From positions 896,001 to 960,000 of the forward strand of contig OX638351.1 in NCBI GenBank assembly GCA_951813565.1: a stretch of DNA of 64,000 nt, read 5' to 3'. Made by a program: the position numbers and the translations under genes. Positions 25,954 to 47,381 of the stretch are shown here, one piece after another (the stretch's first letter is position 1; each line of letters starts with the position of its first letter). The DNA is from an uncultured Poribacteria bacterium. GTDB lineage: Bacteria > Poribacteria > WGA-4E > WGA-3G. The notes under the pieces are model-generated. The model did no database searches and was not told the origin of the DNA. It saw nothing but the letters and a program-made list of their open reading frames with translations.

Positions 25954-26008
25954 TATAATGCTCCTTTTTATAGTTAAGTGCGTTTTCAACGCGTAGATTT
26001 TAGTTAGG

Positions 26009-29165: not shown

Positions 29166-29182
29166 TAAAGTAAGTCTATAAT

Positions 29183-29484: not shown

Positions 29485-29529
29485 AATAATATGAACACTA
29501 TTGACAGTGCCTACTGTAGATAGTATTAT

Positions 29530-29754
29530 AACGTGAGTTTGATAATTAGACCTAAATGTAGATGTCCGTTGGGTAGAGCGAAGCGAAACCCAACAATTCA
29601 ACCGTCTTGGAAGTAATTTAAAGTTGGGTTTCACTCACTTTTCTGTTATTTCGGCATCAAATGGAAAAAAATCTCTCTTTTATGTCCGATTTTTTGTTTA
29701 TTCCGTTCTACCCAACGGACAGTGGTTATTGAATTTTATTATCAAACTCACGTT
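29530..29754. mobile_element. MITE, TIR AACGTGAGTTTGATAA, 5-bp TSD ATTAT
   Basis: Perfect IR 29530-29545 / 29739-29754; interior differs from 18859-19020. Confidence 0.85.
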
Positions 29755-29776
29755 ATTATATTTTAGATTTGATTAT

Positions 29777-30329
29777 CGTTTTTCGGTGTCAAGACCCCGT
29801 TGCTTTAGCGCGGGGATGTAGACACCGCTAACATGTGCAGGGCATCACGAAATGTCCAACGAAAGATTAGGATGTCCTACTACATCGTCAACCATGTCCG
29901 TTGGTGGAGAGCGTCTATATCATGCCAGTCGAATGCGAACTGGAACACGTGAGCGGGTTGATATGCAGCACATATCTGCAATGTGAACTACCAAAGTCGC
30001 TATTTAGCGAACTCTCAAAAGGAGCGTGTAGAGCATTGTCCAAAAGACCCCAAGAGAAGTCCGCTATCTCTTGTTGTGTCGGGGTGCCTGTTAGAAAGGG
30101 CAAGAATGAACTGTTTTAAGTGAAACAGTGCCACTTCACAAAAAAGAATCTTGCCATCTAAAGCAGGTAAAAATCTGCAATAGATGAATGGGCGGGGCAT
30201 CGTCCATTGAAGGAGAGGATGGAAGACTTGCAAAGGCATTGCTGGCGCAAGCAGTCCTTGATGATAGCAGAATTTACCCAGTGCAGAGGACCTAAGAATC
30301 CCCCTGCTTTAGTTGGGGGAGTATGTTAA
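29777..30329 (+). mobile_element. Non-autonomous IS200/IS605 derivative with tnpB-type right end
   Basis: Left hairpin AAGA-CCCCGTTGCTTTAGCGCGGGG; right end GAAT-CCCCCTGCTTTAGTTGGGGG-AGTATGTTAA; no intact tnpA or tnpB. Confidence 0.75.
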
Positions 30330-30424: not shown

Positions 30425-30452
30425 TGCAACCGTTTTCCTCCTAACTTGCGTC
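30425..30452 (+). promoter_or_regulatory. ECF-type promoter, gene 1
   Basis: TGCAAC-N18-CGTC, conserved before all four sigma genes. Confidence 0.7.
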
Positions 30453-30504
30453 ATTATAGTTTGATATATGATTTAATCAAACTATCGCTTTCTAGAGACA
30501 CTTA

Positions 30505-33486
30505 ATGAAAAATGACGATGTTGCACTTATCAGACGAATTCTTGCTGGTAATGAAACCGCTTTCGCTGAACTTGTGAAAAAGTATCAAAAACAGGTTCAC
30601 GTTCTGGCGTGGCGAAAAATCGGAGATTTCCATATCGCTGAGGACATTACCCAGGATGTCTTTCTGAAAGTGTATCAGCAACTTCATGCCCTGAAAAATC
30701 CGAAACAGTTTTCCGGATGGCTCTATGTGATAACGACACGTCTCTGTGCAACGTGCCTACGCAAAAATCGGATTCAGACGCAACCGTTGGAGGACACAGA
30801 GATAACAATGATACAGAGTGATGCCTATTCACAACATGTCGTAGAGGAGCGGGCAAACACTGCAGTTGAAACACAACGTGAAGTGGTCAAGAGACTACTC
30901 GCTAAGTTGAAAGAGAGCGAACGCACGGTGATGGCGCTCCACTATCTCGGTGAGATGACAGTTGAAGAGATCAGCAAGTTTTTAGGGGTTTCTGCAGGAA
31001 CGATTAAGAGTCGGCTACAACGTGCGCGAAACCGTTTACAAAAGGAGGAAACGATGATTAGAGAAGCACTCGACCATTTCCAAATTTCACCGAACCTGAC
31101 CGATAACATTATGCGAGAAGTTGCTCGACTTAAACCTATCGCACCTTCTGGTGGTAAGCCACTGGTGCCGTGGGTGATAGGTGCCGCAAGCGCAGTTTTG
31201 ATTGTATTAATGCTTGGCATAGGCAGTCAATACTTAACACATTTTCAGAAACCCTATAGTTTAGATGCGCAAGCTGAAACGGCGGTTGAACTCGTTGATG
31301 CGCCTATTGTGCTAAATCTTGAGGCGACGCCAGATGTTCGTCGTCAGTTTGGGAATATAAATGCACTTGGTCCAAGCGATAACAATGGACAGAAACCTGA
31401 TGAAATATTATTAGCCGCCGCGCAGTCTGAGGGAGAAGATATTGCTGCCGCCAAACAGCAGTGGATTCAGTCTGAACCTGTCAAAGGAAGTGCGGTGAAA
31501 AGTTTACTTGCGACGCCCGAGGGGGAGCTCTACGTTCTTGATCCTGATCTAAGAATCTACAAATTGCCTGTCAATGGAAAGAGGTGGCAACATATCTTTA
31601 ACGCGGGTTCATTGAAAACCTTGTGGGCAACGTCCCCACGCATCGCAAAGTGGAAAAATACCCTCTACATTATATCATTAAACGAACTCTTTGCTTCAAA
31701 TGATGATGGTAAGACATGGGATTTGGTATATTCTTGGTCTAAAGTAGGACATGCCCAGATTGCCCCAATTGAATTGATACTTACAGAACATGCGTTTTAT
31801 GCCGCTTTTGAAAGCGGCATTTTTCGTTCTGAGGATAAAGGTAAAACCTGGAAAGCACTGAGTAAAGGTTTGAGGGGAAGAATTAGTGCTTTAGTCAAGA
31901 TTCAGCATGTCCTTTTTACTGCAACAGACACTGGACTCTACCGACTCGATCCTGATCTTGAGATTTGGGAACACTTAAAGTTACCAATTTCTTTAATTGG
32001 GCGGTTAATCTCAGTTACAGCGACTGAAGAAAAGCTTTATGTTGCGGTAGAGTTGATGCCGAACGAGGTAGAGCCTCAGGATGATTCGAGGATATTCCGT
32101 TCAGGTGGTTTGGGAATATTTCGCTCAACTGACCTCGGGGACTCGTGGAAAGATATAACCCCTACAAACTCCTGGTCCCTAAAGGGTGGGGCACCCACTC
32201 TCAAACTTGTTGCTGCTGGTGAAATACTCTTGGCGATGGAACATGGTATGTTACGCTCCATAGATGGTGGAAACACATGGGCACCCTTGCAATTACCAGG
32301 AACCTCTCCTTATATGGCATCTCATTATAATGCTGTGGTGAACAAAAACACCATTTATGTTGGCAGCAGTGACGGCCTCCATTGTTCCACTAATGGTGGT
32401 AAATCCTGGGATATAGTCCGGATCACTCAGGATAAGAGGCGGCGAGGAATGCACAACATAATCGCGTATAAGGGGAACAATAAACGGCAAAACATGCCGC
32501 CGACGCTCTATGTGGGAGTTGGACAAGAGATAGTAAAAACTACCGACAAAGGCAAATCTTGGGAAACTATTAAGAGACCCAACAGAAGAGAATCAGCGTT
32601 TTTTACTCAGATGATCAAATCTGATGAGATTGTCTATACAAAAGTTAAGAATTTTGATAATATGCTTATCAATCGCGTATCTGCAGACGGTAATACGTTA
32701 GCGCCGATTCAAGGAATGCCTATTCTTGATTTAATAACATCGGACGACTTGTTTGACTGTGAGGTGCCAGATGATCAGTTGCCTCAAAAGGTCTCTGGTG
32801 AACAGTTGCAAGAAAGTTTTTCTGGCGCAACTCAGTTCTTCAAACAATTGGATCAAATATTGCCTCAATATCTGGATATATATATCCAATTAGGGTATCA
32901 AGGATCATTTGCAGTCAGTGGTGATACCTTCTATATGGAATATAACTTTAAGCTCTTCCGATGGGAACCGGGTGATACTGAATGGTACGACACCGAACAG
33001 GAGGAAACCGTTGAATTAACTTTAGACATAGCACAGAGACATCTTAAACTTGCTGTTTCGGGGAACACTGTCTACGTCGGAAAACGAGATGGACACCTCG
33101 TTGTATCGTTTGACAAGGGAACTAATTGGATTGATCTTACACCAGCGCTGCCATTTCCATTTAAAACTTTCAAAGATATCGTGTTTGCAGGTTCTACGGT
33201 ATATGTAGCGACAGACGCAGGTGTCGCTGCATCAGATGATGGAAGGCATTGGGGTACCGTCACCGATGCAGAGGGAACGAATCTCGTTATGGAGCAATTG
33301 GCTGTTGATGGCACAACGCTTTATGGTGTTACGCAAAAAACGGGTATCTATCGCTTGGAAAGCGGTACTTGGCAACAGATTGTTTCAGAGACTCCTGATA
33401 AAGCAACTTCTCTCGCTGTTGATGGGGACACGTTATACATTGGTACTCAGAACAACGGCATGCTTCATTTCAACCTTGAAAAATAA
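30505..33486 (+). CDS. ECF sigma factor fused to TM helix and Asp-box beta-propeller (copy 1)
   Basis: Region 2 (DFHIAEDITQDVF...FSGWLY), region 4 (ERTV..LHY...T.EEI..FLGVS.GTIKSRL.RAR), TM LVPWVIGAASAVLIVLMLGIG, about 8 S.D.G.TW Asp-boxes. Confidence 0.9.
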   Translation: MKNDDVALIRRILAGNETAFAELVKKYQKQVHVLAWRKIGDFHIAEDITQDVFLKVYQQLHALKNPKQFSGWLYVITTRLCATCLRKNRIQTQPLEDTEITMIQSDAYSQHVVEERANTAVETQREVVKRLLAKLKESERTVMALHYLGEMTVEEISKFLGVSAGTIKSRLQRARNRLQKEETMIREALDHFQISPNLTDNIMREVARLKPIAPSGGKPLVPWVIGAASAVLIVLMLGIGSQYLTHFQKPYSLDAQAETAVELVDAPIVLNLEATPDVRRQFGNINALGPSDNNGQKPDEILLAAAQSEGEDIAAAKQQWIQSEPVKGSAVKSLLATPEGELYVLDPDLRIYKLPVNGKRWQHIFNAGSLKTLWATSPRIAKWKNTLYIISLNELFASNDDGKTWDLVYSWSKVGHAQIAPIELILTEHAFYAAFESGIFRSEDKGKTWKALSKGLRGRISALVKIQHVLFTATDTGLYRLDPDLEIWEHLKLPISLIGRLISVTATEEKLYVAVELMPNEVEPQDDSRIFRSGGLGIFRSTDLGDSWKDITPTNSWSLKGGAPTLKLVAAGEILLAMEHGMLRSIDGGNTWAPLQLPGTSPYMASHYNAVVNKNTIYVGSSDGLHCSTNGGKSWDIVRITQDKRRRGMHNIIAYKGNNKRQNMPPTLYVGVGQEIVKTTDKGKSWETIKRPNRRESAFFTQMIKSDEIVYTKVKNFDNMLINRVSADGNTLAPIQGMPILDLITSDDLFDCEVPDDQLPQKVSGEQLQESFSGATQFFKQLDQILPQYLDIYIQLGYQGSFAVSGDTFYMEYNFKLFRWEPGDTEWYDTEQEETVELTLDIAQRHLKLAVSGNTVYVGKRDGHLVVSFDKGTNWIDLTPALPFPFKTFKDIVFAGSTVYVATDAGVAASDDGRHWGTVTDAEGTNLVMEQLAVDGTTLYGVTQKTGIYRLESGTWQQIVSETPDKATSLAVDGDTLYIGTQNNGMLHFNLEK

Positions 33487-33672
33487 TGTAGTAAAACATA
33501 TAATCACTGCAAACCCTACCTGTAGGCATGCTTTGTAAGCGCGCCGTTAGGCAATCTTTAGCACTGATATAGGCGCGTTTACAAAACGCGCCTACCAATA
33601 AATCGGGCGGACAAAATCCTCCTACAAGAGTGCTTCGCGACAATTGAATACCTCTGCCTATCAACCCACATC

Positions 33673-33700
33673 TTGACAAACCCTCCCGATTTGGTAGAAT
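33673..33700 (+). promoter_or_regulatory. Sigma70-type promoter upstream of ECF gene 2
   Basis: TTGACA-N16-TAGAAT with TG extended -10; copies at 36954-36981 and 40246-40273. Confidence 0.65.
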
Positions 33701-33747
33701 AGTATTTCACTGTTTCTAACCATCCAATTTGTAAACATGCAGAATTA

Positions 33748-33775
33748 TGCACCAGTTTCCCTCCTAACATGCGTC
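33748..33775 (+). promoter_or_regulatory. ECF-type promoter, gene 2
   Basis: TGCACC-N18-CGTC. Confidence 0.7.
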
Positions 33776-33801
33776 ACTATAGCGCGATCGGAGGTAATTC
33801 C

Positions 33802-36800
33802 ATGAAAACTACTGATGTTGAGCTCATCAACCGCATTCTCAATGGCGATGATACTGCCTTCACTGAACTTGTGAAAAAGTACCAAAAACCTGTTCACGCG
33901 CTTGTGTGGCGTAAAATTGGAGATTTCCACATCGCCGAGGAAATTACACAGGATACATTCCTAAAAGCATATCAAGGATTAGCGGGACTGAAGAAGCCCC
34001 AAAGTTTTGCAAGTTGGCTTTATGTGATCGCCGCAAACAATTGTAGCACGTGGCTGCGTAAAAAGCGTGTGCGGACGCAGCCGCTGGAAGAGACAAGCAA
34101 CTCACAGTCTGGAAAAGCGACGTACTCGCAATATGTGATTGAAGAAAACGAGCGGACAGCGGTAGAAGCACAGCGTGAAGTCGTTAAGAAGTTGCTTGCG
34201 AAACTTCCAGAGAGTGAACGCACGATTATCACGCTACATTATTTTAGCGAGATGTCCAGTGCAGAGATTGGTGCGTTTTTAGGTGTATCAGCAAATACGA
34301 TTCGGAGTCGCCTCCGCAGAGCACAACAACGTTTACAAAAGGAGGAAACGATGATTAGAGAAGCACTCGACCATTTCCAAATTTCACCGAACCTGACCGA
34401 TAACATTATGCGAGAAGTTGCTCGACTTAAACCTATCGCACCTTCTGGTGGTAAGCCACTGGTGCCATGGGCAATTGCTGCTTCAAGTGCTATTTTGATT
34501 GTGTTAATGCTCGGTATAGGTAGTCGATACTTAGCGCTTTTTCAGAAACCTTATAGTTTGGATGCTCATGCTGAAACGACGGTTGAACTCGTTGATGCGC
34601 CTATTGTGCTAAATCTTGAGGCGAAGCCAGATGTGCGAAATCTTCTTGGGAGTCCAAATGCTCTGAGTAAAAACGATAATCGTGGAGAGAAACCTGATGC
34701 GGTTTTATTGGCTGCCGCGCAGTCTGAGGAAGAGGATATTGCTGTTTCCAAACAGCAGTGGATTCAGGCTGAACCGATTAAAGGCAGCCCACTGATGAGC
34801 ATATTGGGAACACCTGAAGGCGATATATATGTCCTTGGTGATGAATTAAGTTTCTATAAATTACCTGCCAATGGAAAGCAGTGGCAACATATCTCTGACG
34901 TAGGTTCACTGAAAACTTGGTGGACACCGAGGCCTCCTATCGCAAAATGGAAAAATACCCTTTACATGATACCAACTAACAAACTCTTTGCTTCAATAGA
35001 TGATGGTAAGACATGGGATTTACTCTACTCATGGCAGGAAGAAAAATATTGGACTCCGATTGAATTGGTGCTAACAGAGGATGCGTTTTATGCCGCTTTT
35101 GAAAGCGGCATTTTTCGTTCTGAGGATAAAGGTAAAACCTGGAAAGCACTGAGTAAAGGATTGAGGGGAAGAATTAGTGCTTTAGTCGAGATTCAGCATG
35201 TCCTTTTTACTGCAACAGACACTGGACTCTACCGACTCGATCCTGATCTTGAGATTTGGGAACGCTTAAAGTTACCTGCTCCAGAAATCGGTAGGATTTT
35301 TTCTGTAGCAGCGACTGAAGATAAGTTGTATGTTGCAGCAGAGTTTAGTTGGGACGGACAAGTAGATCCTCGTAAAGTAGAACGAGGACTGGAGCGTGGT
35401 TGGTGGATATTCCGCTCAACGGACCTCGGTGATTCGTGGGATGATATAACGCCGACAAACGCTTGGCCCGTAAACGGATGGCCACCCGGAATCGAACTTA
35501 TTGCTGTAGGTGAAACACTTCTGGCGATGGAAGATGGTATGGTACGCTCTATTGATGGAGGAGATAAATGGATGCCGCCGCAGACACCCCGCACTTCCCC
35601 TTCAACGATTAGTGGATTGCCTACTGTCGCTTTAAACGAACGGACTTTTTATGTGCATAGCTGGGACGGTCTCCATCGTTCTACTGACGGAGGGAAATCA
35701 TGGAACAAGGTGAATATCCCTAAGGAGAAGGAAACGAATCCAATAGACAATTTAATCGTCCATCACGGAGGTGATAAAGGGGGAAAAATGCTTTCGACCC
35801 TCTACACGACATCTGGACTTGGACACGGGAAATGGATAAAAAAAATAGTAAAAACTACCGACAAAGGCGAATCTTGGGAAACTATTAAGATGGAAATACC
35901 AATGGGAACGCCTAAAAGAGAAGAACAACCGAGTATTAGTCAGATAGTCAAATCTGGTAGTGTCATTTATGCCAAAGGTGGAATTCCAGGTAACGTAAAT
36001 AATCGTTTCTATCGTGTATCTGATGACAATAGACTTGTCCTGCTTCAAGGAATACCCACCCTTGATTCAAAGTCATTAAGAAATCAAGTGTTATTTAGGA
36101 GTCAACCTATTGAAAATCTTTCTGTTGAATATCTGCAAGAAAACTTTTCTGGCGCAACCCAATTCTTCAAACAGTTAGCACAAGGAGATGCTCAGAATCA
36201 TAGAGATCGCATGAGGTTAAGTGACCTTCTTAAGCATGGGTTTGAGGGGACTTTTGCGGTGAGTGATGATACATTCTATATGGAATATCATTTCAAACTC
36301 TTCCGATGGAAACCGGGTGAGGCAGAATGGTACGACACCGGACAGGAAGAAACCATTGAATTGACTATGGACGTGGCAAGAAAAAATCTCAAACTTGCTG
36401 TTTCAGTGGATACTGTCTACGTTGGAAAACGGGATGGACACCTCGTCGTATCGTTTGATAGAGGAACTAATTGGATTGATCTTACGCCAGCGCTGCCGTT
36501 TCCATTTAAAACTTTCAAAGAGATCGTATTTGCGGATTCTACGGTGTATGTAGCGACAGATGCTGGTGTCACTACATCGGATGATGGGAGAACTTGGCGT
36601 ACCATCACTGATGCAGAGGGGACCAATCTCGTCATGGAACATTTAGCTGCTGATGGTACAAAGGTTTATGGCGTTACTGAAAACACGGGTGCCTATCGCT
36701 TGGAAAGCGGTGCTTGGGAAAGTGTTGTTTCTGAGATGCCTGATAACGTAACTTCTCTTGCTGTAGATGGAAATACGGTATATGTAGGCACAGAATACAA

Positions 36801-36831
36801 CGAAGTGCTTCATTTTAATCTTAAAAAATAA
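33802..36831 (+). CDS. ECF sigma factor-TM-beta-propeller fusion (copy 2)
   Basis: Same architecture; GGAGG before ATG 33802. Confidence 0.9.
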   Translation: MKTTDVELINRILNGDDTAFTELVKKYQKPVHALVWRKIGDFHIAEEITQDTFLKAYQGLAGLKKPQSFASWLYVIAANNCSTWLRKKRVRTQPLEETSNSQSGKATYSQYVIEENERTAVEAQREVVKKLLAKLPESERTIITLHYFSEMSSAEIGAFLGVSANTIRSRLRRAQQRLQKEETMIREALDHFQISPNLTDNIMREVARLKPIAPSGGKPLVPWAIAASSAILIVLMLGIGSRYLALFQKPYSLDAHAETTVELVDAPIVLNLEAKPDVRNLLGSPNALSKNDNRGEKPDAVLLAAAQSEEEDIAVSKQQWIQAEPIKGSPLMSILGTPEGDIYVLGDELSFYKLPANGKQWQHISDVGSLKTWWTPRPPIAKWKNTLYMIPTNKLFASIDDGKTWDLLYSWQEEKYWTPIELVLTEDAFYAAFESGIFRSEDKGKTWKALSKGLRGRISALVEIQHVLFTATDTGLYRLDPDLEIWERLKLPAPEIGRIFSVAATEDKLYVAAEFSWDGQVDPRKVERGLERGWWIFRSTDLGDSWDDITPTNAWPVNGWPPGIELIAVGETLLAMEDGMVRSIDGGDKWMPPQTPRTSPSTISGLPTVALNERTFYVHSWDGLHRSTDGGKSWNKVNIPKEKETNPIDNLIVHHGGDKGGKMLSTLYTTSGLGHGKWIKKIVKTTDKGESWETIKMEIPMGTPKREEQPSISQIVKSGSVIYAKGGIPGNVNNRFYRVSDDNRLVLLQGIPTLDSKSLRNQVLFRSQPIENLSVEYLQENFSGATQFFKQLAQGDAQNHRDRMRLSDLLKHGFEGTFAVSDDTFYMEYHFKLFRWKPGEAEWYDTGQEETIELTMDVARKNLKLAVSVDTVYVGKRDGHLVVSFDRGTNWIDLTPALPFPFKTFKEIVFADSTVYVATDAGVTTSDDGRTWRTITDAEGTNLVMEHLAADGTKVYGVTENTGAYRLESGAWESVVSEMPDNVTSLAVDGNTVYVGTEYNEVLHFNLKK

Positions 36832-37029
36832 TGTTAGTAAAATCTATAATAACTGCAAACCTTACTTGTAGGCGCGCTTTGTAAGCGCGCCGTGCAATAA
36901 TGTGTCATTAATTGTAAAATTCACTATAAATATCCTACCAATCAACCCACATCTTGACAAACCCTCCTGATTTGGTAAAATAGGACTTCATAGTCTCGGA
37001 TCATCCCTCTTAGGATTTTTTTTGCGTTA

Positions 37030-37057
37030 TGCACCCGTTTTGCACCTAACCCGCGTC
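37030..37057 (+). promoter_or_regulatory. ECF-type promoter, gene 3
   Basis: TGCACC-N18-CGTC. Confidence 0.7.
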
Positions 37058-37147
37058 TTTTAAAGTACAGGCACAATGTTAGGGATGTAATCTTTTCACT
37101 AAACGCAGGGAAAACGCTCAAAGTTTTCGCTTATCAGAAGGTGACTT

Positions 37148-40123
37148 ATGAAAAACAACGATATTGATTTGGTCCATCGCACCCTTGATGGTGATGAAAC
37201 TGCTTTTTCTACACTTGTTGAAAAATATCAAAAGCAGGTTCATGCGCTCGCTTGGCGGAAAATAGGTGATTTCCATATTGCTGAAGAAATTACACAAGAC
37301 ACCTTCCTGAAAGCATATCAAAAACTCGCAACTCTGAAAAAACCGCATCGTCTTGCTGGATGGCTTTATGTGATCGCGACACGCTGCTGCCAAGCTTGGC
37401 TACGAAAAAAGCAGATGCAGACCGAATCATTAGAGGAAATAGATAGTGAAAAGATAGAGCCAGAGGCGTATTCCCGATATGTTGCGGAAGAAGAAGCGAA
37501 GGTAACCGTTGAGGCACAACGCAGAATTGTTAAAAAGCTTCTCGCTACATTGCCAGAGAGTGAGCGCACTGTTATCACACTTCACTACTTCGGTGACATG
37601 ACGTGTGAAAAAATGGGCGAGTTTTTAGGTGTATCCGCAAACACGATTAAAAGTCGACTCCGCCGTGCGCGGAACCGCTTGAAAAAGGAGGAACCGATGA
37701 TCCGAGAAGCAATTAGCAACTTCCAAATTTCACCGAACCTAACCGATAACGTTATGCAAGAGGTCAATCGTCTAAAACCTGCAGCGCCTTCTGGCAGCAA
37801 GCCCTTTGTGCCGTGGACAATTGCTGCAGCAAGTGCTATTTTGATTGTGCTGATGCTTGGGGTGGGCAGTCAATACTTAGTCAGTTTTCAAAAACCTTAT
37901 AGTTTGGATGCACAGGATGAGACGACGGTTGAGCTTGTTGATACTCCCGTTGTGCTAAATCTTGAGACGAAGCCAGATGTGCGTCGGGAGATTGGGAGTC
38001 CAAATGCACTTGGTAAAAGTGATAACAACGGTCAGAAGCCTGATGAAGTTTTGTTAGCTGCTGCACAGGCGGAAGGAGAAGACATTTCTGTACCCAAACA
38101 GCAGTGGATTCAGTCTGAACCGCTCATAGGAAGTGCGGTAGAAAATCTATTTGCAACCGATGATGGACAACTCTACACTGTTCTTGATGCGCACATATAC
38201 AAATGGCAAAATGATAATACAGGATGGCAGCAAGTTAGCAATGACATCAGAGATTATCATGATAGGCTGAATGAAACTACTATTATAACTGATGTTCCTA
38301 TAGCAAAGTGGAACAATACCCTTTATATTGTTTTAAAAAACTTACTATTGGCTTCAAAAGATGATGGCAAGACATGGAAAATAGTCCATTCATGGACACC
38401 TGATTATTTTTCCCCGCGTGAATTGTTGTTTACTGAACAAGCGTTTTGGGTAATTTTTTCCAAAGGTGCTTTCCGTTCTGAGGATAAAGGTAAGACATGG
38501 CAGAATGTAGACGATGAATTATTTAAAGGTTACATCTTCTTTATAGCCATACAAAATACGGTATTTGCTGGATCATACACCGGGTTGTATCGCTGGAACA
38601 CCGGCAGCTGGGAACGTATAGAATTACCTGTGCCTGAAGCAATGATAGTCGCCAAAGCCGCAGCCACCAAAGATCGCTTGTATGTAAAGGCATCATTAGG
38701 TTATGATTTTTATGATGATAAAGCAGTACGGGAGGGGCGACAGCGGACTTGGTGGATATTTCGATCAAATGATTTGGGAAATTCGTGGAAAGATATTACA
38801 CCGACAAATGCTTGGCCCCTAAAAGCCCAGTCACCCGATATCCAACTTGTTGCTGCTGGTGAAACAGTTCTGTTGATGGGACGGGGTATTGTGCGTTCTA
38901 CCGATGGAGGAGATACTTGGTTCCCCTTTCAAGCGTCTCATACTCTCCCTACAGATATAAAGCGTTATTGGCCTTCTGTGGCATTAAACGAACATGTATT
39001 TTACGCTATAGGGAGAGGTCTACACCGTACCACCGATGGTGGCAAATCATGGAGCAAGGTTAATATCACTCGGAATAGGAGATGGCTTGGAATACAAAAC
39101 TTACTCGTGCATAAGCAGAACGAAAGAATAGAAAGCATGCAGCCGCCTCTTTATGGGCAAGCTGGGAGTGGGATAGTAAAAACAACTGACAAGGGCAAGA
39201 CTTGGAAGACTGTTCAGGTAGAAATACCTATGACCGCTCCTATAAGAGAAGACCCGCCATGGATTACTCAGATCATTGTATCTGATGGTGTTATCTATGC
39301 TAAAAGTAGAAGTCAATACCCAATCGGAGAATTGCGTTACTTTCGCGTATCTGAAGATGGGAACACATTAGTACCTATTCAAGGCATACCTACCTTCGAC
39401 TCGAGGGAATTAAGAGAGCATCTGCGTAAGTCTCAAAATCTCTCTCTTGAAACGTTGCAAGAAGGTTTTTCTGGAGCGACCCAATTCTTCAAATGGTTGC
39501 TCCAAGTAACTCCACAAGAGCAGGATACACTCATCCAAGTAGGGCTTCAGGGACCGTTTGCGGTTAGTGGTGATACGTTCTATATGGAGTATAACCTTAA
39601 ACTCTTTCGATGGGAATCTGGTGATACAGAATGGCAAGACATCGGACAAGAAGTAACTTCACCTAGCAGAGGGAAAGCGCTCAAACTTGCAGCATCAGGG
39701 AACACTGTTTACGTCGGGAAACGGGACGGTCACCTTGTTGTATCGTATGATAGGGGAAACAATTGGATTGATCTCACCCCAGCTCTGCCATTTCCTGTTA
39801 AAAATTACAATCAGATTCTGGTTGCTGGGTCCACCGTGTATGTAGCAACGGATGCTGGTATCATTACATCAGATGATGGGAGAATTTGGCGTCCTGTCAC
39901 CGATTCAGAGGGGGCCAATCTTATCATGGAACGCTTGGCTGTTGATGGCACAACGCTTTATGGCATCTACAGAGATACAAGTATCTACCGCTTGGAAGAC
40001 GGCGCCTGGGAACAGGTCGTCTCAGAGATACCTGATAACGTAACGTCTCTTGCTGTTGATGGGGACACGTTATACATTGGTACTCAGAACAACGGCATGC
40101 TTTATTTCACCCTTGAAGAATAA
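37148..40123 (+). CDS. ECF sigma factor-TM-beta-propeller fusion (copy 3)
   Basis: Same architecture; AGGTG RBS. Confidence 0.9.
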   Translation: MKNNDIDLVHRTLDGDETAFSTLVEKYQKQVHALAWRKIGDFHIAEEITQDTFLKAYQKLATLKKPHRLAGWLYVIATRCCQAWLRKKQMQTESLEEIDSEKIEPEAYSRYVAEEEAKVTVEAQRRIVKKLLATLPESERTVITLHYFGDMTCEKMGEFLGVSANTIKSRLRRARNRLKKEEPMIREAISNFQISPNLTDNVMQEVNRLKPAAPSGSKPFVPWTIAAASAILIVLMLGVGSQYLVSFQKPYSLDAQDETTVELVDTPVVLNLETKPDVRREIGSPNALGKSDNNGQKPDEVLLAAAQAEGEDISVPKQQWIQSEPLIGSAVENLFATDDGQLYTVLDAHIYKWQNDNTGWQQVSNDIRDYHDRLNETTIITDVPIAKWNNTLYIVLKNLLLASKDDGKTWKIVHSWTPDYFSPRELLFTEQAFWVIFSKGAFRSEDKGKTWQNVDDELFKGYIFFIAIQNTVFAGSYTGLYRWNTGSWERIELPVPEAMIVAKAAATKDRLYVKASLGYDFYDDKAVREGRQRTWWIFRSNDLGNSWKDITPTNAWPLKAQSPDIQLVAAGETVLLMGRGIVRSTDGGDTWFPFQASHTLPTDIKRYWPSVALNEHVFYAIGRGLHRTTDGGKSWSKVNITRNRRWLGIQNLLVHKQNERIESMQPPLYGQAGSGIVKTTDKGKTWKTVQVEIPMTAPIREDPPWITQIIVSDGVIYAKSRSQYPIGELRYFRVSEDGNTLVPIQGIPTFDSRELREHLRKSQNLSLETLQEGFSGATQFFKWLLQVTPQEQDTLIQVGLQGPFAVSGDTFYMEYNLKLFRWESGDTEWQDIGQEVTSPSRGKALKLAASGNTVYVGKRDGHLVVSYDRGNNWIDLTPALPFPVKNYNQILVAGSTVYVATDAGIITSDDGRIWRPVTDSEGANLIMERLAVDGTTLYGIYRDTSIYRLEDGAWEQVVSEIPDNVTSLAVDGDTLYIGTQNNGMLYFTLEE

Positions 40124-40321
40124 TGTTAGTAAAATCTATAATAACTGCAAACCTTACTTGTAGGCGCGCTTTGTAAGCGCGCCGTGCAATAATGTGTCAT
40201 TAATTGTAAAATTCACTATAAATATCCTACCAATCAACCCACATCTTGACAAACCCTCCTGATTTGGTAAAATAGGACTTCATAGTCTCGGATCATCCCT
40301 CTTAGGATTTTTTTTGCGTTA

Positions 40322-40349
40322 TGCACCCGTTTTGCACCTAACCCGCGTC
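40322..40349 (+). promoter_or_regulatory. ECF-type promoter, gene 4
   Basis: TGCACC-N18-CGTC; identical to the gene 3 upstream region. Confidence 0.7.
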
Positions 40350-40439
40350 TTTTAAAGTACAGGCACAATGTTAGGGATGTAATCTTTTCACTAAACGCAG
40401 GGAAAACGCTCAAAGTTTTCGCTTATCAGAAGGTGACTT

Positions 40440-43400
40440 ATGAAAAACAACGATATTGATTTGGTCCATCGCACCCTTGATGGTGATGAAACTGCTTTTT
40501 CTACACTTGTTGAAAAATATCAAAAGCAGGTTCATGCGCTCGCTTGGCGGAAAATAGGTGATTTCCATATTGCTGAAGAAATTACACAAGACACCTTCCT
40601 GAAAGCATATCAAAAATTGGCAACATTGAAAAAACCGCACCGTCTTGCCGGATGGCTTTATGTGATCGCAACACGCTGCTGCCAAGCTTGGCTACGAAAA
40701 AAGCAGATGCAGACCAAATCATTAGAGGAAATAGATAGTGAAAAGATAGAGCCAGAGGCGTATTCCCGATATGTTGCGGAAGAAGAAGCGAAGGTAACCG
40801 TTGAGGCACAACGCAGAATTGTTAAAAAGCTTCTCGCTACATTGCCAGAGAGTGAGCGCACTGTTATCACACTTCATTACTTCGGTGACATGACGTGTGA
40901 AAAAATGGGCGAGTTTTTAGGTGTATCCGCAAACACGATTAAAAGTCGACTCCGCCGTGCGCGGAACCGCTTGAAAAAGGAGGAACCGATGATCCGAGAA
41001 GCAATTAGCAACTTCCAAATTTCACCGAACCTAACCGATAACGTTATGCAAGAGGTCAATCGTCTAAAACCTGCAGCACCTTCTGTCAGTAAACCTTTGG
41101 TGCCGTGGGCAATTGCTGCTTCAAGTGCAGTTTTGATTATGTTGATGCTTGGAATTGGCAGTCAATACTTAACACATTTTCAGAAGCCTTATAGTTTAGA
41201 TGCTCATGCTGAAAGGATGGTTGAACTCGTTGATGCACCTATTTTCCTGAATCTTGAAGTAAAACCGAGTACACGAAATCAACTTGTGAAGGCAAATGCA
41301 TTCGATAAAACTGATAATAATGGTCAGAAACCTGATGCGGTTTTATTGGCTGCCGCGCAGTCTGAGGAAGAGGATATTGCTGTTTCCAAACAGCAGTGGA
41401 TTCAGGCTGAACCGATTAAAGGCAGCCCACTGATGAGCATATTGGGAACACCTGAAGGCGATATATATGTCCTTGGTGATGAATTAAGTTTCTATAAATT
41501 ACCTGCCAATGGAAAGCAGTGGCAACATATCTCTGACGTAGGTTCACTGAAAACTTGGTGGACACCGAGGCCTCCTATCGCAAAATGGAAAAATACCCTT
41601 TACATGATACCAACTAACAAACTCTTTGCTTCAATAGATGATGGTAAGACCTGGGATTTACTCTACTCATGGCAGGAAGAAAAATATTGGACTCCGATTG
41701 AATTGGTGCTAACAGAGGATGCGTTTTATGCCGCTTTTGAAAGCGGCATTTTTCGTTCTGAGGATAAAGGTAAAACCTGGAAAGCACTGAGTAAAGGATT
41801 GAGGGGAAGAATTAGTGCTTTAGTCGAGATTCAGCATGTCCTTTTTACTGCAACAGACACTGGACTCTACCGACTCGATCCTGATCTTGAGATTTGGGAA
41901 CGCTTAAAGTTACCTGCTCCAGAAATCGGTAGGATTTTTTCTGTAGCAGCGACTGAAGATAAGTTGTATGTTGCAGCAGAGTTTAGTTGGGACGGACAAG
42001 TAGATCCTCGTAAAGTAGAACGAGGACTGGAGCGTGGTTGGTGGATATTCCGCTCAACGGACCTCGGTGATTCGTGGGATGATATAACGCCGACAAACGC
42101 TTGGCCCGTAAACGGATGGCCACCCGGAATCGAACTTATTGCTGTAGGTGAAACACTTCTGGCGATGGAAGATGGTATGGTACGCTCTATTGATGGAGGA
42201 GATAAATGGATGCCGCCGCAGACACCCCGCACTTCCCCTTCAACGATTAGTGGATTGCCTACTGTCGCTTTAAACGAACGGACTTTTTATGTGCATAGCT
42301 GGGACGGTCTCCATCGTTCTACTGACGGAGGGAAATCATGGAACAAGGTGAATATCCCTAAGGAGAAGGAAACGAATCCAATAGACAATTTAATCGTCCA
42401 TCACGGAGGTGATAAAGGGGGAAAAATGCTTTCGACCCTCTACACGACATCTGGACTTGGACACGGGAAATGGATAAAAAAAATAGTAAAAACTACCGAC
42501 AAAGGCGAATCTTGGGAAACTATTAAGATGGAAATACCAATGGGAACGCCTAAAAGAGAAGAACAACCGAGTATTAGTCAGATAGTCAAATCTGGTAGTG
42601 TCATTTATGCCAAAGGTGGAATTCCAGGTAACGTAAATAATCGTTTCTATCGTGTATCTGATGACAATAGACTTGTCCTGCTTCAAGGAATACCCACCCT
42701 TGATTCAAAGTCATTAAGAAATCAAGTGTTATTTAGGAGTCAACCTATTGAAAATCTTTCTGTTGAATATCTGCAAGAAAACTTTTCTGGCGCAACCCAA
42801 TTCTTCAAACAGTTAGCACAAGGAGATGTTCAGCAACATAGAGTACGTCTTGAAGAACTTATCCATCTGGGGTTTCGGGGGACTTTTGCGGTTAGTGATG
42901 ATACATTCTATATGGAGTATAACCTTAAACTCTTTCGATGGGAATCTGGTGATACAGAATGGCAAGACATCGGACAAGAAGTAACTTCACCTAGCAGAGG
43001 GAAAGCGCTCAAACTTGCAGCATCAGGGAACACTGTTTACGTCGGGAAACGGGATGGACACCTCGTCGTATCGTTTGATAGAGGAACTAATTGGATTGAT
43101 CTTACGCCAGCGCTGCCGTTTCCATTTAAAACTTTCAAAGAGATCGTATTTGCGGATTCTACGGTGTATGTAGCGACAGATGCTGGTGTCACTACATCGG
43201 ATGATGGGAGAACTTGGCGTACCATCACTGATGCAGAGGGGACCAATCTCGTCATGGAACATTTAGCTGCTGATGGTACAAAGGTTTATGGCGTTACTGA
43301 AAACACGGGTGCCTATCGCTTGGAAAGCGGGACTTGGGAAAAGGTTGTTTCAGAGATACCTGATAACGTAACTTCTCTTGCTGTTGATGGAGAGACATTA

Positions 43401-43451
43401 TATATAGGCACGCAAAGCAACGGTATGCTTTATTACAATTTTGAAGAATAA
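40440..43451 (+). CDS. ECF sigma factor-TM-beta-propeller fusion (copy 4, chimera of copies 2 and 3)
   Basis: Same architecture; blocks near-identical to genes 2 and 3. Confidence 0.9.
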   Translation: MKNNDIDLVHRTLDGDETAFSTLVEKYQKQVHALAWRKIGDFHIAEEITQDTFLKAYQKLATLKKPHRLAGWLYVIATRCCQAWLRKKQMQTKSLEEIDSEKIEPEAYSRYVAEEEAKVTVEAQRRIVKKLLATLPESERTVITLHYFGDMTCEKMGEFLGVSANTIKSRLRRARNRLKKEEPMIREAISNFQISPNLTDNVMQEVNRLKPAAPSVSKPLVPWAIAASSAVLIMLMLGIGSQYLTHFQKPYSLDAHAERMVELVDAPIFLNLEVKPSTRNQLVKANAFDKTDNNGQKPDAVLLAAAQSEEEDIAVSKQQWIQAEPIKGSPLMSILGTPEGDIYVLGDELSFYKLPANGKQWQHISDVGSLKTWWTPRPPIAKWKNTLYMIPTNKLFASIDDGKTWDLLYSWQEEKYWTPIELVLTEDAFYAAFESGIFRSEDKGKTWKALSKGLRGRISALVEIQHVLFTATDTGLYRLDPDLEIWERLKLPAPEIGRIFSVAATEDKLYVAAEFSWDGQVDPRKVERGLERGWWIFRSTDLGDSWDDITPTNAWPVNGWPPGIELIAVGETLLAMEDGMVRSIDGGDKWMPPQTPRTSPSTISGLPTVALNERTFYVHSWDGLHRSTDGGKSWNKVNIPKEKETNPIDNLIVHHGGDKGGKMLSTLYTTSGLGHGKWIKKIVKTTDKGESWETIKMEIPMGTPKREEQPSISQIVKSGSVIYAKGGIPGNVNNRFYRVSDDNRLVLLQGIPTLDSKSLRNQVLFRSQPIENLSVEYLQENFSGATQFFKQLAQGDVQQHRVRLEELIHLGFRGTFAVSDDTFYMEYNLKLFRWESGDTEWQDIGQEVTSPSRGKALKLAASGNTVYVGKRDGHLVVSFDRGTNWIDLTPALPFPFKTFKEIVFADSTVYVATDAGVTTSDDGRTWRTITDAEGTNLVMEHLAADGTKVYGVTENTGAYRLESGTWEKVVSEIPDNVTSLAVDGETLYIGTQSNGMLYYNFEE

Positions 43452-43621
43452 ACCAAATCAATGCTGAATGCGACAAATGCCGTACATGCATTAGCGTTTA
43501 GCATTCGGTGTCTCATAATAGATGTCTACTTCTCCTACAAGAAGATAGTCGCGACCAGGAGGTCGCTCCTACAGGAAGAAGTTTGGACTTATAAAGTACG
43601 TCTACAACGTACAAATTGACC

Positions 43622-46600
43622 TTAAAGTTCCGCGCTGACAGTCATCTCTAAGCGATGTTCAGGTTTGCGCTGTTTTGTTGAGAGAAGGCGGTAATTGAGT
43701 CTAAATAGTAGATCGGTAAATTTGCGTAACCTATAATCCGCAGTGGCGCGCACTTCATGGCTGATGCCTTCGTAAAAATAGTATTGTGCGAAAGGGATAC
43801 CGCCATCGCTTTTACCATAGCCGAGTGTATGGTTTACATCAATACGACCCTTACCGAAAATACTATATGTTAAGCGATTTTCAAAGGAAAAGGTACGTGT
43901 TTTTGCTGTAGACTCTTCGTCAAGTTTTTCTATGTCAGTTGTGCGTTTGTATCCTCCGATACCACTCCATCGTATCGAGCGACTCAGTTCATACTGGAGT
44001 TTTAATTCTGTTATCTGTTCAAATTGACGGAGGTCGGAGATGGGTGTTGATGAAAATAAATCAGGATCGGTAACCGTTCCCTTTTCTGTTCCATCGGGGT
44101 TGGAAACCCCTCCTAAGTCTATAAAGTTGAGTTGGCTATATTTTTCTGTTTCGCGGCGTTGCTCCCAGTTTGCACCGACTGAGAGACGTTGCGTTGGATT
44201 TACTGAGAAAGCAACATCCCACGTTCTATGATTTCTCAGCCGTTCTTGTGTGTTAATCCGTCGATTGAGTGTGCGTCCAGTCCTAAGATTGACTTCAAAA
44301 CTGAACAGAGGTGAAGGTGAAAATTCAACCCGATGATGTTGGTTAACGCGTCCGAAAAGCGTTTGTGAACCTTGTAAGCTTTGGAGTAGATAGAGGGATA
44401 TAGTATCTTCTGCTTCCTGTTCCTCTGTTAACCATAGGCGTGTCTGGATTCTGAGTGCATTTAAGAACCACGTAAATGGTTGTCGGTTTTTGGTTGTCGG
44501 TTTTTGGTTGTCGGTGTTAGTGGTTGGGGGAAGATTACCTCGCCCCATGAAATCTGTTCTGGTGGAATTGCGTTGATTTCGGGCGCGGCGGGCGAAAAAC
44601 TGACGCGGTTGGACACGGAGTCGAAAGGCAGCATCAACCGCTGTTGTCGGTCTATCCCCTACATTCTGGTAAATTTTGATGTACGTTCCTTCCTCCGGAT
44701 CTTCTACATAGCGCAAATCATCTAATCTGACATAATACCCTTCACCGGGCTGGATTCTATTTCCAGTGAGCGGATGAATATCGGTGTAGATTTCACGACG
44801 TTGTGTTGTCAGTTTTTTATCCAATTCATAAGTAATTTCAGCATCAATCGCACGACTGAACGGTGTTAATTGGATTGTTGCATCCGCTAATTGTGTTGTT
44901 GTATCTGTGCCACGTTCAGAATGCGCCTTCACCATGCGGCGTGCGAGATTTGTTTTCATATTTATCCATTGTCCTTGCTGTGAAAAGACTCCGGCTTTCC
45001 ATGTGCGTGCTGTGGTAGACCGCATCCAATCAGAAATTCCTAAAGTTTCGCCATCAAGTGTCAATAAAGGTTTTTTAGCAAAAGCCTGTTCAAGTTCGTA
45101 ACTTGTATGAATGGAAGCCCATTTAAAGTCAACCAAGTTGACGCGTCCAGAAGTTCGGTTACGTCTGCGGTTGCGCGCAGCAGTGTAATCATCAATGGAG
45201 GCGAATCGATCAAAAGTGCCAACAAATTCAAAAGGAGAAAGAAGGTAAGATAGACTCCCCTCTTGCCTTGATTTTCGGATATTTTCTTCTGTGCCTGCAG
45301 ACTCCTCGCCCGGTTCTATGCGGGATGTGCTGCGATAATCATTCCAACGAAGATTCGGCAATTTTGCCAGAATCGAATTACGCGAAAGATCGCTTTCCAC
45401 AGAACTCGGTCTCCGTCCATCGCCACTTTGATATTGCGCGGATGGTCGGAATAAATTTTCAGCTTGCGAGGACATATTAGAAAAAGTTGAACTTCTGCTT
45501 GAGCGTGGCGCGAAATTTGCCCCCCAATTGAAATTATTACGCCGTGTTGTTTGTCCTTCAACAACATCCTCAATTGTCCTGCCGCCACCCAAATCAAATC
45601 GTAGCCATTGGGACGGCAGCAATTTGAAGTCAAGATTTAATGTTTGCTCATCGGACGCTTGCGAGATAGAACTCGGGTCAAACAGAAACGCGTCCTCAAA
45701 CCCTTCTGTCGCGTATTGGGTCCCGTAGCGATCGCGAGTTCTATTACTACTTGACGCGCCAACAGGTAAAAAATTGGCATCCATTGCCCGCACATCAAGG
45801 TTTCCTATTAGTTTAGGACGCAGCTTGTTAGACCATGTTGGAAAATCCCAACTTGTGTAACCAATTAGTTTCCAAGCCTGACTTGCCTCCTTCCTGTCTA
45901 CGGTAGAATAGGTATTTTTATCAACAGCGCTAAAAGCGAGTTCTCCATCAACCCATGTCTGTTCGGCAAAATTTAGACGACTCTCTAATCCCCACACCGT
46001 ATGTTTCTGCGGCGGCGTAAGGAGGAAACCGTCGCCATCTGGGTCCAGCATATTTTGGCGGAGTGCGTCCAAATCATCGTCATCAAAAAGGACTAAAGCC
46101 TGCTCAGGATCGTCCAAATCCGCTTCCACAGCGTAAGAAGCACCGAGTGACAACCATTCCCCGGGCAACCTGAAAACGTTATTGACGCCGTAAAGATTTT
46201 GTTGATATACAAGGTCTTCAGGAATGTATTCAAAATCAACGCGGATTACGTCGTTGCTTGTTATGAGATGTTTGCTGTTGAATTCAATAATTGGATCGCC
46301 GTATTCACGGATGATGTAATCGTTATTTTCACCGCGCCGCATCTTTTCACCGTTCAGCCAAACGATTTCACTCCCTGCTTTGACAATAACGAACTGGTTA
46401 TCTACATCAAGCCGATATTCACTGCGACCTTCCTCACCACGAATTACTTTGCTTGTGGACTGCCCCTTTGGAAGCGCGCTCGGAATGAGATGGAATTTTC
46501 CCCAGTCAAAATCACCTTCGACCTTGACTCCCTCAAGCGCACGTGGAAAAAAGATAAATTCAGATGGTCCCAAGGTGGCGTCGAAATCGCCTAAAGTGCC

Positions 46601-47338
46601 TGTCACATTAGGATGCGTGATGCGAATTAACTTTTGATTGATATCCTGAATATCCTCAGTCATTCCCTCCGGTTGAATAGGCAAATCTTGGTCGGAGAGC
46701 ATTGCAAGCACCTCAATATTCTCTGAGACGTTACCTCGGACATTGATACGGAACTCCTGATTTTGCGATAATGATCGCCCGCTGCCGACAGAAATACCGA
46801 ATGTACGACTGCCAGAATACTCTAATTGCGATGGTGGGATAGAAGAAGATGTGCCGGGGCCCGTAGGTTGTCTTTCCAAATCAGGGGATATATCATTTCT
46901 TGGCGTTGAATCTAATTCCTCGTCAAATGGTGTTCCAAACAGATCACGTTTATATATCTTTAGGAAAGTGAAGGGAATCGAACGGTAGGTTATCGTCCAT
47001 GTTACGTCTTTTTGTGCTGCAACTGATTTATCAAGGGTAATTTTACCTGATGTGTAATTTATCTGGTAATCTTTCCCACGAACGAGTTTTTGTCCGTTAT
47101 CACCTGCTATCTGTTCACTATTGAAAAAAACAGGTGGATATTTGACTGTCCATTCCGCTTTTCCTGCTCCCAATTGAAAGTTTTCCGACTTTTCAATAAC
47201 AGAAAAAGTTGGAAATTTAAGGATGGGATTCTGCTTTTGCTGTTCAGTTTGTGCGTTTGCGCTATTCAAACAAAAAAAGAAAAGAAGACAGAAAAAAAAT
47301 GGGAATGTAGAAAGTCGGATTTCTGTATGTCTTGCCAT
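43622..47338 (-). CDS. Large exported protein, probable outer-membrane beta-barrel
   Basis: Signal peptide; LSDQDLPIQPEG motif; alternating amphipathic strands in the C-terminal half. Confidence 0.7.
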   Translation of the reverse strand: MARHTEIRLSTFPFFFCLLFFFCLNSANAQTEQQKQNPILKFPTFSVIEKSENFQLGAGKAEWTVKYPPVFFNSEQIAGDNGQKLVRGKDYQINYTSGKITLDKSVAAQKDVTWTITYRSIPFTFLKIYKRDLFGTPFDEELDSTPRNDISPDLERQPTGPGTSSSIPPSQLEYSGSRTFGISVGSGRSLSQNQEFRINVRGNVSENIEVLAMLSDQDLPIQPEGMTEDIQDINQKLIRITHPNVTGTLGDFDATLGPSEFIFFPRALEGVKVEGDFDWGKFHLIPSALPKGQSTSKVIRGEEGRSEYRLDVDNQFVIVKAGSEIVWLNGEKMRRGENNDYIIREYGDPIIEFNSKHLITSNDVIRVDFEYIPEDLVYQQNLYGVNNVFRLPGEWLSLGASYAVEADLDDPEQALVLFDDDDLDALRQNMLDPDGDGFLLTPPQKHTVWGLESRLNFAEQTWVDGELAFSAVDKNTYSTVDRKEASQAWKLIGYTSWDFPTWSNKLRPKLIGNLDVRAMDANFLPVGASSSNRTRDRYGTQYATEGFEDAFLFDPSSISQASDEQTLNLDFKLLPSQWLRFDLGGGRTIEDVVEGQTTRRNNFNWGANFAPRSSRSSTFSNMSSQAENLFRPSAQYQSGDGRRPSSVESDLSRNSILAKLPNLRWNDYRSTSRIEPGEESAGTEENIRKSRQEGSLSYLLSPFEFVGTFDRFASIDDYTAARNRRRNRTSGRVNLVDFKWASIHTSYELEQAFAKKPLLTLDGETLGISDWMRSTTARTWKAGVFSQQGQWINMKTNLARRMVKAHSERGTDTTTQLADATIQLTPFSRAIDAEITYELDKKLTTQRREIYTDIHPLTGNRIQPGEGYYVRLDDLRYVEDPEEGTYIKIYQNVGDRPTTAVDAAFRLRVQPRQFFARRARNQRNSTRTDFMGRGNLPPTTNTDNQKPTTKNRQPFTWFLNALRIQTRLWLTEEQEAEDTISLYLLQSLQGSQTLFGRVNQHHRVEFSPSPLFSFEVNLRTGRTLNRRINTQERLRNHRTWDVAFSVNPTQRLSVGANWEQRRETEKYSQLNFIDLGGVSNPDGTEKGTVTDPDLFSSTPISDLRQFEQITELKLQYELSRSIRWSGIGGYKRTTDIEKLDEESTAKTRTFSFENRLTYSIFGKGRIDVNHTLGYGKSDGGIPFAQYYFYEGISHEVRATADYRLRKFTDLLFRLNYRLLSTKQRKPEHRLEMTVSAEL

Positions 47339-47381
47339 CCTTCTACCTTTCCATTCTTGCACCTATCCATTCCTATTTTTC

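Follow-up and report, generated by a model that had tools for sequence, protein, structure and literature searches.

A mosaic gene in a tandem array of sigma-propeller fusion genes from a Poribacteria genome

We analysed a tandem array of four signalling genes in a 64,000-nucleotide (nt) stretch of DNA from an uncultured Poribacteria bacterium (contig OX638351.1), here called the window. Coordinates without a prefix are window positions 1-64,000, equivalent to genome positions 896001-960000, and those prefixed G000:C1 are genome coordinates. The source genome is 5.43 Mb in one contig, and all relatives of the locus in the genome collection (54/54 loci) are Candidatus Poribacteria, a phylum commonly hosted by marine sponges (PMC3909097). 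Genes 1 to 4, all on the forward strand, each encode about 1000 amino acids (aa) with sigma2 and sigma4 domains, one hydrophobic helix at about aa 219-242 and a propeller region of the BNR/sortilin/YCF48 type. Gene 1 (30505-33486, 993 aa) joins an extracytoplasmic function (ECF) sigma domain of type S45 (helix AGTIKSRLQR), one transmembrane (TM) helix and a BNR/Asp-box propeller of type P43. Gene 2 (33802-36831, 1009 aa) has sigma S24 (ANTIRSRLRR), a TM helix and propeller P40; its open reading frame (ORF) is open from 33769 and the start was placed by alignment. Gene 3 (37148-40123, 991 aa) has sigma S52 (ANTIKSRLRR), a TM helix and propeller P15, and gene 4 (40440-43451, 1003 aa, open frame) is a mosaic of sigma S52, a P38-type linker and TM helix, and propeller P40. 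This is the architecture of ECF (group 4) sigma factors: PF04542, PF08281, PF04545 and PF07638 scored above cut-off in genes 1-4, TIGR02937 reached 94.9 bits (cut-off 42.9), and the domain search matched no further sigma region (sigma1.1 or sigma3). Downstream, on the reverse strand, lies the anchor gene of the locus (43622-47362, 1246 aa), which has no Pfam or NCBIfam match and is accompanied by 0-5 family genes in congeners.

Direct comparison reproduced all four identity blocks reported in an earlier note made from the sequence alone. Positions 40121-41077 match 36829-37785 with 9 mismatches in 957 nt (the note gave about ten), 41326-42828 match 34688-36190 with one in 1503 nt, and 42906-43054 and 43047-43330 match 39578-39726 (149 nt) and 36427-36710 (284 nt) with none. 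Outside these blocks, 100-nt windows of the paralogues mostly show 45-90% identity, so the blocks lie far beyond chance. Further tracts are shared by genes 1 and 2 (31033-31169/34330-34466, 137 nt, no mismatches), by genes 1, 2 and 4 (31790-31972/35081-35263/41719-41901, 183 nt, 2 mismatches) and by genes 1 and 3 (33415-33465/40052-40102, 51 nt, exact).

Gene 4 consists of seven segments from at least four sources, for which a single unequal crossover is insufficient, as had been argued from the order of the blocks. The shared sigma block (40119-41077, a copy of 36827-37785) starts 2 nt earlier than first noted, at the stop codon of the upstream gene, and takes in the intergenic region, the promoters, sigma and the tether to aa 213. 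Eight of its nine differences between genes 3 and 4 are silent, seven of them clustering in one 54-nt patch (40617-40670), and E93K is the sole residue change; copying could have run either way. There follow gene 4's own TM helix (41094-41162, aa 219-241) and linker (41078-41325), which are 91-94% identical to three congener S52-P38 genes and appear to be a remnant of the ancestral gene 4. The propeller from aa 296 to 797 (41326-42828) is a copy of gene 2 (34688-36190) with one silent mismatch at 41651, after which aa 798-822 (42829-42905) represent a second P40 allele, 88-90% identical to L061_9926 and L062_9965 and with no exact copy elsewhere in the genome. A 149-nt patch from gene 3 (42906-43054) then introduces a loop four residues shorter and typical of P15, the 284-nt gene-2 block (43047-43330) overlaps this patch by 8 nt, and a unique 3' tail (43331-43451) has best matches of 84-87% to several types; a 94% match of this tail to L048_12334 was discarded as a gap artefact. 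The segments between the blocks have no exact match of at least 30 nt elsewhere in the genome. The junctions fall in homologous stretches, and no shared motif was found among them.

For an independent check of gene 4 we used Logan contigs from 4 of 22 listed runs in three studies (P1: X1 and X3; P2: X4; P3: X6) and compared contig ends with simulated k=31 unitigs made with and without gene 4; runs X9 and X10 (labelled sponge metagenome, shares 0.27 and 0.26) and those with smaller shares lay outside the comparison. Contigs of X1 and X3 break at 36827, 37324, 37756 and 39607, and X1 also starts at 41872 and X3 at 39697. The simulated unitigs end at these positions when gene 4 is in the genome, but not when it is removed. 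At a depth of 2-3, the X6 contigs 39697-41008, 40979-41697, 41709-42162 and 43025-43377 show no other letters and no gaps, and between them cross the gene 3-to-gene 4, the sigma-linker-propeller and the gene-3-patch/gene-2-block junctions. Contigs from two studies thus carry the junctions of gene 4, and misassembly, named beforehand as the finding that would overturn the mosaic, is unlikely. Since no contig spans the 1503-nt repeat, support for genes 2 and 4 on one chromosome comes from the single-contig assembly. One P1 run may be the source sample. A C>T difference at 37585 in the contigs is gene 4's own letter, and other letters at 36460, 36462, 41015 and 41027 in X1, X3 and X4 were set aside as matching a paralogue at genome position 1309574. 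The X6 contig 43355-44500 has no other letters and one 14-nt insertion at 44476, inside the anchor gene; relative to the window this insertion is present in all four runs, so either the strains differ at this site or the window sequence contains an assembly error.

Run X4 differs from genes 1 and 3 by 0-2 positions per listed contig, and its contigs cross the shared tracts of 149, 51 and 183 nt without a break. On gene 1 it carries 12 substitutions wholly inside the 51-nt tract shared with gene 3 (33426-33455), and one contig has 22 unaligned letters past 40145. A near-identical strain thus holds another state of the array; these contigs would be compatible with an intact S52-P38 gene at position 4 but do not show one. 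Missing cover was not counted as evidence (X4 at 35692-36182 and 42566-43056; X6 over gene 1), and an X4 joint of 36890 to 33572 was dropped, both ends being REP-like and the spacer absent from the genome. A Joint Genome Institute (JGI) metagenome scan returned no conspecific strain and two distant loci only.

To place the parts of gene 4, we assembled 249 sigma-bearing ORFs from 92 loci and the genome, removed exact duplicates, and kept 150 of the 154 genes with this propeller (900-1100 aa), which clustered into 54 sigma types and 53 propeller types at distance cut-offs of 0.16 and 0.25 that we set ourselves. One hydrophobic peak is present in 148 of these 150 genes. The S24+P40 pairing of gene 2 recurs in L024 and L061 and is therefore old, and S52+P15 of gene 3 recurs in L024. 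Among nine S52 genes, five carry P38, two P15, one P41 and one, gene 4 only, P40, so that the new sigma/propeller pairing claimed for gene 4 occurs in 1 of 150 sampled genes. The linker of gene 4 groups with the S52-P38 genes of congeners (95/84; starred clade, 32 rows), and approximately unbiased (AU) tests reject its placement with gene 3 (p 1.9e-13) or gene 2 (p 0.005). At the level of single bases, gene 4 agrees with gene 3 as far as aa 213, then with the S52-P38 genes until about aa 295, and with gene 2 starting at aa 296. Given this linker match and the switch at aa 296, the most fitting view of gene 4 is that of an S52-P38 gene whose P38 was lost. Its promoter, sigma and linker are a native unit, paired with P38 in congeners, and the identity of the gene 3 and gene 4 sigma blocks is read as homogenisation of same-type sigmas. 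The description of gene 4 as a chimera of genes 3 and 2 consequently holds for the blocks but not for the linker or for aa 798-822, and the idea that the sigma block brought a new output is not supported, as gene 4 was most likely already S52 and the block alters one residue. By this comparison, what appears new in gene 4 is the gene-2-type propeller and the gene-3 loop patch. The short loop at exactly this length occurs in 10 of 12 P15 genes, in none of nine P38 genes and in 1 of 11 P40 genes (gene 4); being typical of P15 and absent from the other ten P40 and the nine P38 genes, it identifies gene 3 as the source of the 149-nt patch, and the suggested new propeller combination is borne out at the level of this imported loop variant.

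Across the family, the sigma and propeller trees have little in common, and switches cluster in the linker. Sigma and propeller distances correlate weakly (Spearman 0.15; the two halves of sigma give 0.73 and the thirds of the propeller 0.59-0.74), and FastTree trees of the two modules have 13 of 147 splits in common (48 and 77 in within-module controls). Mapping propeller type onto the sigma tree takes 92 changes (minimum 52), the 150 genes hold 107 sigma-propeller combinations, and 14 of the 16 propeller types with at least three genes have at least two sigma types. Pairs that are close on one side of a boundary remain so on the other in 33-73% of cases at aa 161-321, the 33% figure being inflated by the highly conserved 161-200 window (tether), compared with 83-100% across aa 321-881. 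Re-pairing of sigma and sensor is the rule in this Poribacteria family, as far as can be judged from genomes that are kin, chosen by likeness to the window, and from types that hinge on our cut-offs. Near-identical tracts of at least 100 nt occur in 24 of 64 loci, of at least 200 nt in 11, of at least 400 nt in 3 and of at least 900 nt here only, in counts from which short-read assemblies would hide long tracts.

The genes also appear to carry their own promoters. Of 246 family genes, 227 have a two-part motif, a predicted autoregulatory -35/-10 promoter, upstream at a median distance of 40 nt, against 0 of 246 shuffled. In the array, predicted ECF promoters on the forward strand precede gene 1 (30425-30453, TGCAACC ... 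CGTCA), gene 2 (33748-33776, TGCACCA ... CGTCA), gene 3 (37030-37058, TGCACCC ... CGTCT) and gene 4 (40322-40350, identical to gene 3's). A conserved upstream block (40227-40298, forward strand; also 33654-33725 and 36935-37006) holds a predicted sigma-70-like TTGACA-N16-TAAAAT element, with TAGAAT in place of TAAAAT in gene 2's copy. Over 144 genes, 15 sigma-4 helix keys each correspond to one -35 core, including NT.RS..R with GCACCA (32 genes), NT.KS..R with GCACCC (14), GT.KS..Q with GCAACC (32) and SA.KN..Y with GAGACT (24). In the genome, TGCACCC-N16/17-CGTC precedes four ORFs, all family genes with an NT[IV]KSRLRR helix, namely genes 3 and 4 and two paralogues with WD40 cargo. Three ORFs follow a TGCACCA-class motif, namely gene 2, the paralogue at 1309574 and one with a transposase-related look, and wrong spacer lengths gave 0 matches. 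The TGCAACC class also precedes an ABC ATPase and, in near-perfect form, a MoxR AAA+/DUF58-vWA operon (G000:C1:2406075-2408186), which is a candidate target and perhaps serves as a folding aid. The predicted regulons are small and mostly the family itself, and since the helix tracks the -35 of its own predicted promoter, a swap would rewire a small, largely closed circuit; in gene 4, it would shift P40 input onto the TGCACCC circuit.

Sigma and tether stay together in the swap. At codon 184 of gene 4, a Shine-Dalgarno sequence (AAGGAG) with ATG (40977-40991, forward strand) forms a predicted second start for a tether-TM-propeller product that lacks sigma. The same arrangement occurs in 140 of 150 genes, with AAG at 132/135 and GAG at 147/148, compared with about 30% family-wide. 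Elsewhere in the genome, an 835-nt copy with 7 mismatches (G000:C1:827709-828543/2472667-2473501) comprises the promoter and 5' part of the sigma of another family gene; placed 1.6 Mb away before a 103-aa ORF, it is a truncated head that moved alone.

Together these data support a reading in which gene 4 is a real mosaic, built by several rounds of RecA-type patch exchange without a dedicated enzyme and likely with its original propeller replaced by one of gene 2's type. We consider this account probable. It would start from an ancestral gene 4 made of S52, linker and P38, whose propeller gave way to P40 from aa 296 onwards; gene 4 would then have received the gene-3 loop patch and the patch of a second P40 allele, and exchange between genes 3 and 4 would have made their S52 heads alike. 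Crossovers would fall mostly in the conserved tether, TM helix and linker (aa ~190-320), because these supply the homology common to the modules. The genome carries recA, comEC, dprA and an RseP-type (M50) protease. Median dN/dS, the ratio of nonsynonymous to synonymous substitution rates, is 0.11 for sigma, 0.20 for the linker and 0.23-0.34 for the propeller, and there is no sign of positive selection, values being below 1 in all segments and in all 34 windows of 20 codons (max 0.49). In operation, sigma would be held at the membrane while the outer propeller senses a ligand, and IutY-like proteolysis would release it; the freed sigma would turn on promoters of its own -35 class, so that P40 input might drive two circuits, the TGCACCA circuit of gene 2 and the TGCACCC circuit of genes 3 and 4 and the two paralogues with WD40 cargo.

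Several points weigh against this account. The segment at aa 798-822 is a P40 allele that is neither P38 nor gene 2, and implies either an earlier P40 at this place or an imported patch; a P40 propeller may thus have been in gene 4 before the 1503-nt tract, which would then be homogenising rather than innovating. Patch-wise exchange is the simplest process, and to this extent the segmental gene conversion first proposed stands, but one genome cannot separate conversion from double or serial crossovers or DNA import. In the gene 4 model, sensing, release by proteolysis and the use of promoters are predictions. The helix/-35 co-evolution test was not significant, with only 2-4 independent pairs, and promoter and sigma are physically linked. 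Finally, variant P40 contigs in X4 (depth 31) may belong to a different Poribacteria species of that sample and were not relied on.

Concerted evolution alone is one alternative, and the P40 allele at aa 798-822, distinct from that of gene 2, speaks for it. Gene 4 would have long been S52-P40, with recent tracts homogenised with genes 3 and 2 and diversity lost in a near-neutral process, in keeping with the silent character of eight of nine gene 3/gene 4 differences and of the sole gene 2/gene 4 difference, with the low dN/dS throughout and with a predicted regulon that is mostly the family itself. We regard this as unlikely: the P38-type linker stops exactly where gene-2 identity starts, S52-P40 is found in none of the other genes of the 150-gene set, and the gene-3 loop patch is a new combination. 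Alternatively, copy number may have changed without overwriting of sequence, through repeated unequal crossing-over, through a circular repeat unit that was excised and inserted again, or through transformation with an array fragment from a sister strain. The variable array size beside the anchor gene, the presence of comEC and dprA, the start of the sigma block at a stop codon and the one patch with no exact donor in the genome are all compatible with this. Each of the short internal patches (51-284 nt) flanked by recipient sequence would, however, need two close exchanges, and gene 4 retains a native linker absent from genes 2 and 3, which leaves this route decidedly unlikely.

The dedicated diversity-generating array proposed in the earlier note receives little support. 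The tracts in the window are the longest among the 64 loci, a near-identical strain differs at several of them, and exchange is concentrated in the linker, as a programmed generator working at high rate might produce. Yet the two reverse transcriptase (RT) genes, at genome positions 812184 and 3990853, lie about 114 kb and 3 Mb from the array, and the one tyrosine recombinase found (PF00589, 4.77 Mb) is 3.8 Mb away; no recombinase was found among ORFs near the array, serine recombinases not having been searched for. Unlike the output of a diversity-generating retroelement (DGR), the mismatches are of all kinds, not A-specific and mostly silent, and the junctions share no site of the sort a shufflon would use. 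In cassette-to-expression-site antigenic variation, as in vls and pilE/pilS, silent partial donors feed one expressed recipient. Here genes 2 and 3 are full-length donors with their own predicted promoters, and genes 1 and 2 also share tracts. On our reading, 149 rows point to about ten further tandem clusters of this genome that have partial near-identical tracts of at least 200 nt (G000:C1 207-217k, 366-370k, 373-378k, 413-414k, 1263-1270k, 1980-1982k, 2902-2904k, 3154-3157k, 3370-3378k and 3550-3553k), and with the low propeller dN/dS a programmed generator is very improbable. Least probable of all is that gene 4 was stitched by the assembler from repeats or strain variants. The unspanned 1503-nt repeat and the uneven depth of X1 hint in that direction, but X6, from another study, crosses the gene 4 junctions without differences, the contig ends of X1 and X3 fit the assembly, the segments have real relatives in other species and the frame is intact. 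In X1, depth is 26-45 over gene 1 and 75-100 over genes 2 and 3 and the anchor gene; contig depth is a weak measure, and a strain mixture is possible.

Comparable exchange is known from other systems. In Helicobacter pylori, RecA-dependent intragenomic recombination among babA, babB and babC fuses coding parts of paralogues into chimeras and changes binding by the outer domain (PMC5483490). The Poribacteria array likewise has near-identical tracts in diverged paralogues, an in-frame chimera and strain polymorphism. The bab genes are dispersed adhesin genes, whereas here the genes are tandem signalling genes, the sensor is exchanged relative to the transcriptional output, and we infer the role of RecA. 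Conversion of PE/PPE genes also involves homologous recombination of repeated paralogues, conversion tracts and new strain-level genes seen by long reads, in a different family and with no input-output re-pairing in the part of the account available (PMC12046097). Lineage-specific expansions of histidine kinases create new signalling genes by sensor-domain shuffling (PMC1630713), though in two-component systems and by domain-level inference, compared with base-level tracts in a one-protein sigma system here. A paper on Campylobacter Tlp offered no evidence of natural chimeras and was left out of the comparison. Among planctomycete ECF sigma factors, sigma-domain and extension trees disagree and TM-containing extensions bear propellers; duplication of a minimal sigma and chance insertion were proposed there, in contrast to homologous exchange through a conserved linker, and the word 'recombination' occurs 0 times in the available main text (PMC7671368). 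ECF57, from Planctomycetes, has about two TM helices, a WD40 or homeodomain extension and a conserved cysteine pair (PMC7826278). The present loci are Poribacteria with one TM helix and a BNR propeller, and WD40 cargo sits on other paralogues. ECF128 of Actinobacteria has a putative anti-sigma with BNR/Asp-box, sortilin and YCF48 matches, the same Pfam set, but with sigma and anti-sigma as separate genes rather than fused in frame (PMC7826278).

The internal start could give a separate, ECF128-like product in the 140 genes that have it. The outer domain of IutY, a sigma factor of Pseudomonas putida, is of FecR type; no FecR domain was matched in genes 1-4, which have BNR/sortilin/YCF48 instead, and in place of a linked TonB-dependent receptor of the IutY kind the neighbour at 43622-47362 is the unmatched anchor gene. 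IutY too combines a cytosolic ECF sigma, a membrane anchor and a periplasmic domain in one chain and is released by Prc and RseP (PMC5411451), but it is a single siderophore-signalling gene, in contrast to the BNR/Asp-box propellers, tandem arrays, internal start and module exchange seen here. Full-text literature searches, judged on titles and the opening lines of abstracts, gave no description of sigma-propeller fusions or their recombination in Poribacteria, although subscription papers may bear on this; the word 'sigma' is absent from PMC3909097, as is 'poribacteria' from the available part of the PMC7826278 supplement.

Gene 4 offers a base-resolved natural case of a signalling gene gaining an input-output pairing, confirmed outside the assembly and variable between strains. 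The surprise is limited, since recombination among tandem paralogues is a well-known process and neither dedicated machinery nor positive selection is in evidence; what this analysis adds is the dissected recent swap, its polymorphism among strains, the counts across the genus and the map of helix to -35. This last correspondence offers a testable ECF recognition code and near-orthogonal sigma-promoter pairs. It is conceivable, if rather doubtful, that Poribacteria keep a genus-wide combinatorial signalling library of self-addressed promoter-sigma cassettes and a conserved propeller set, with the tether as crossover zone and selection for re-pairing that rewires a closed sigma network between strains in a host population. 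Gene 4 would be a recent case, and a one-residue code might operate, for example K168/R168 reading TGCACCC/TGCACCA.

Sequences of solved structures related to the propeller include GH74 xyloglucanases, Ycf48, BNR sialidases and sortilin, matched via short Asp-box stretches (46 sequences), and Atlas clusters gave BNR/sortilin at 0.92-0.93; neither search points to a ligand. Other genes of the genome with the same sigma head bear WD40, M61 peptidase, redoxin or oxidoreductase domains, and the fusions to redoxin (G000:C1:805405), M61 peptidase (1460341) and a GFO oxidoreductase domain (2210225) suggest that the outer domain is possibly cargo as well as sensor. A second array (G000:C1:1302756-1312531) has three family genes, two with WD40 and one with BNR, and its own shared tracts of 79, 134 and 141 nt. 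In the window, a tandem pair of LamG-type genes (24023-25973) is 82% identical across 896 nt. Upstream of gene 1 (27950-30312) lie broken transposase-like frames, a multi-copy element end (29179-29487), an element resembling a miniature inverted-repeat transposable element (MITE; 29524-29760) and another repeat. Hairpins resembling repetitive extragenic palindromic (REP) sequences occur at 33570-33597, 36865-36892, 40157-40184 and 43547-43580.

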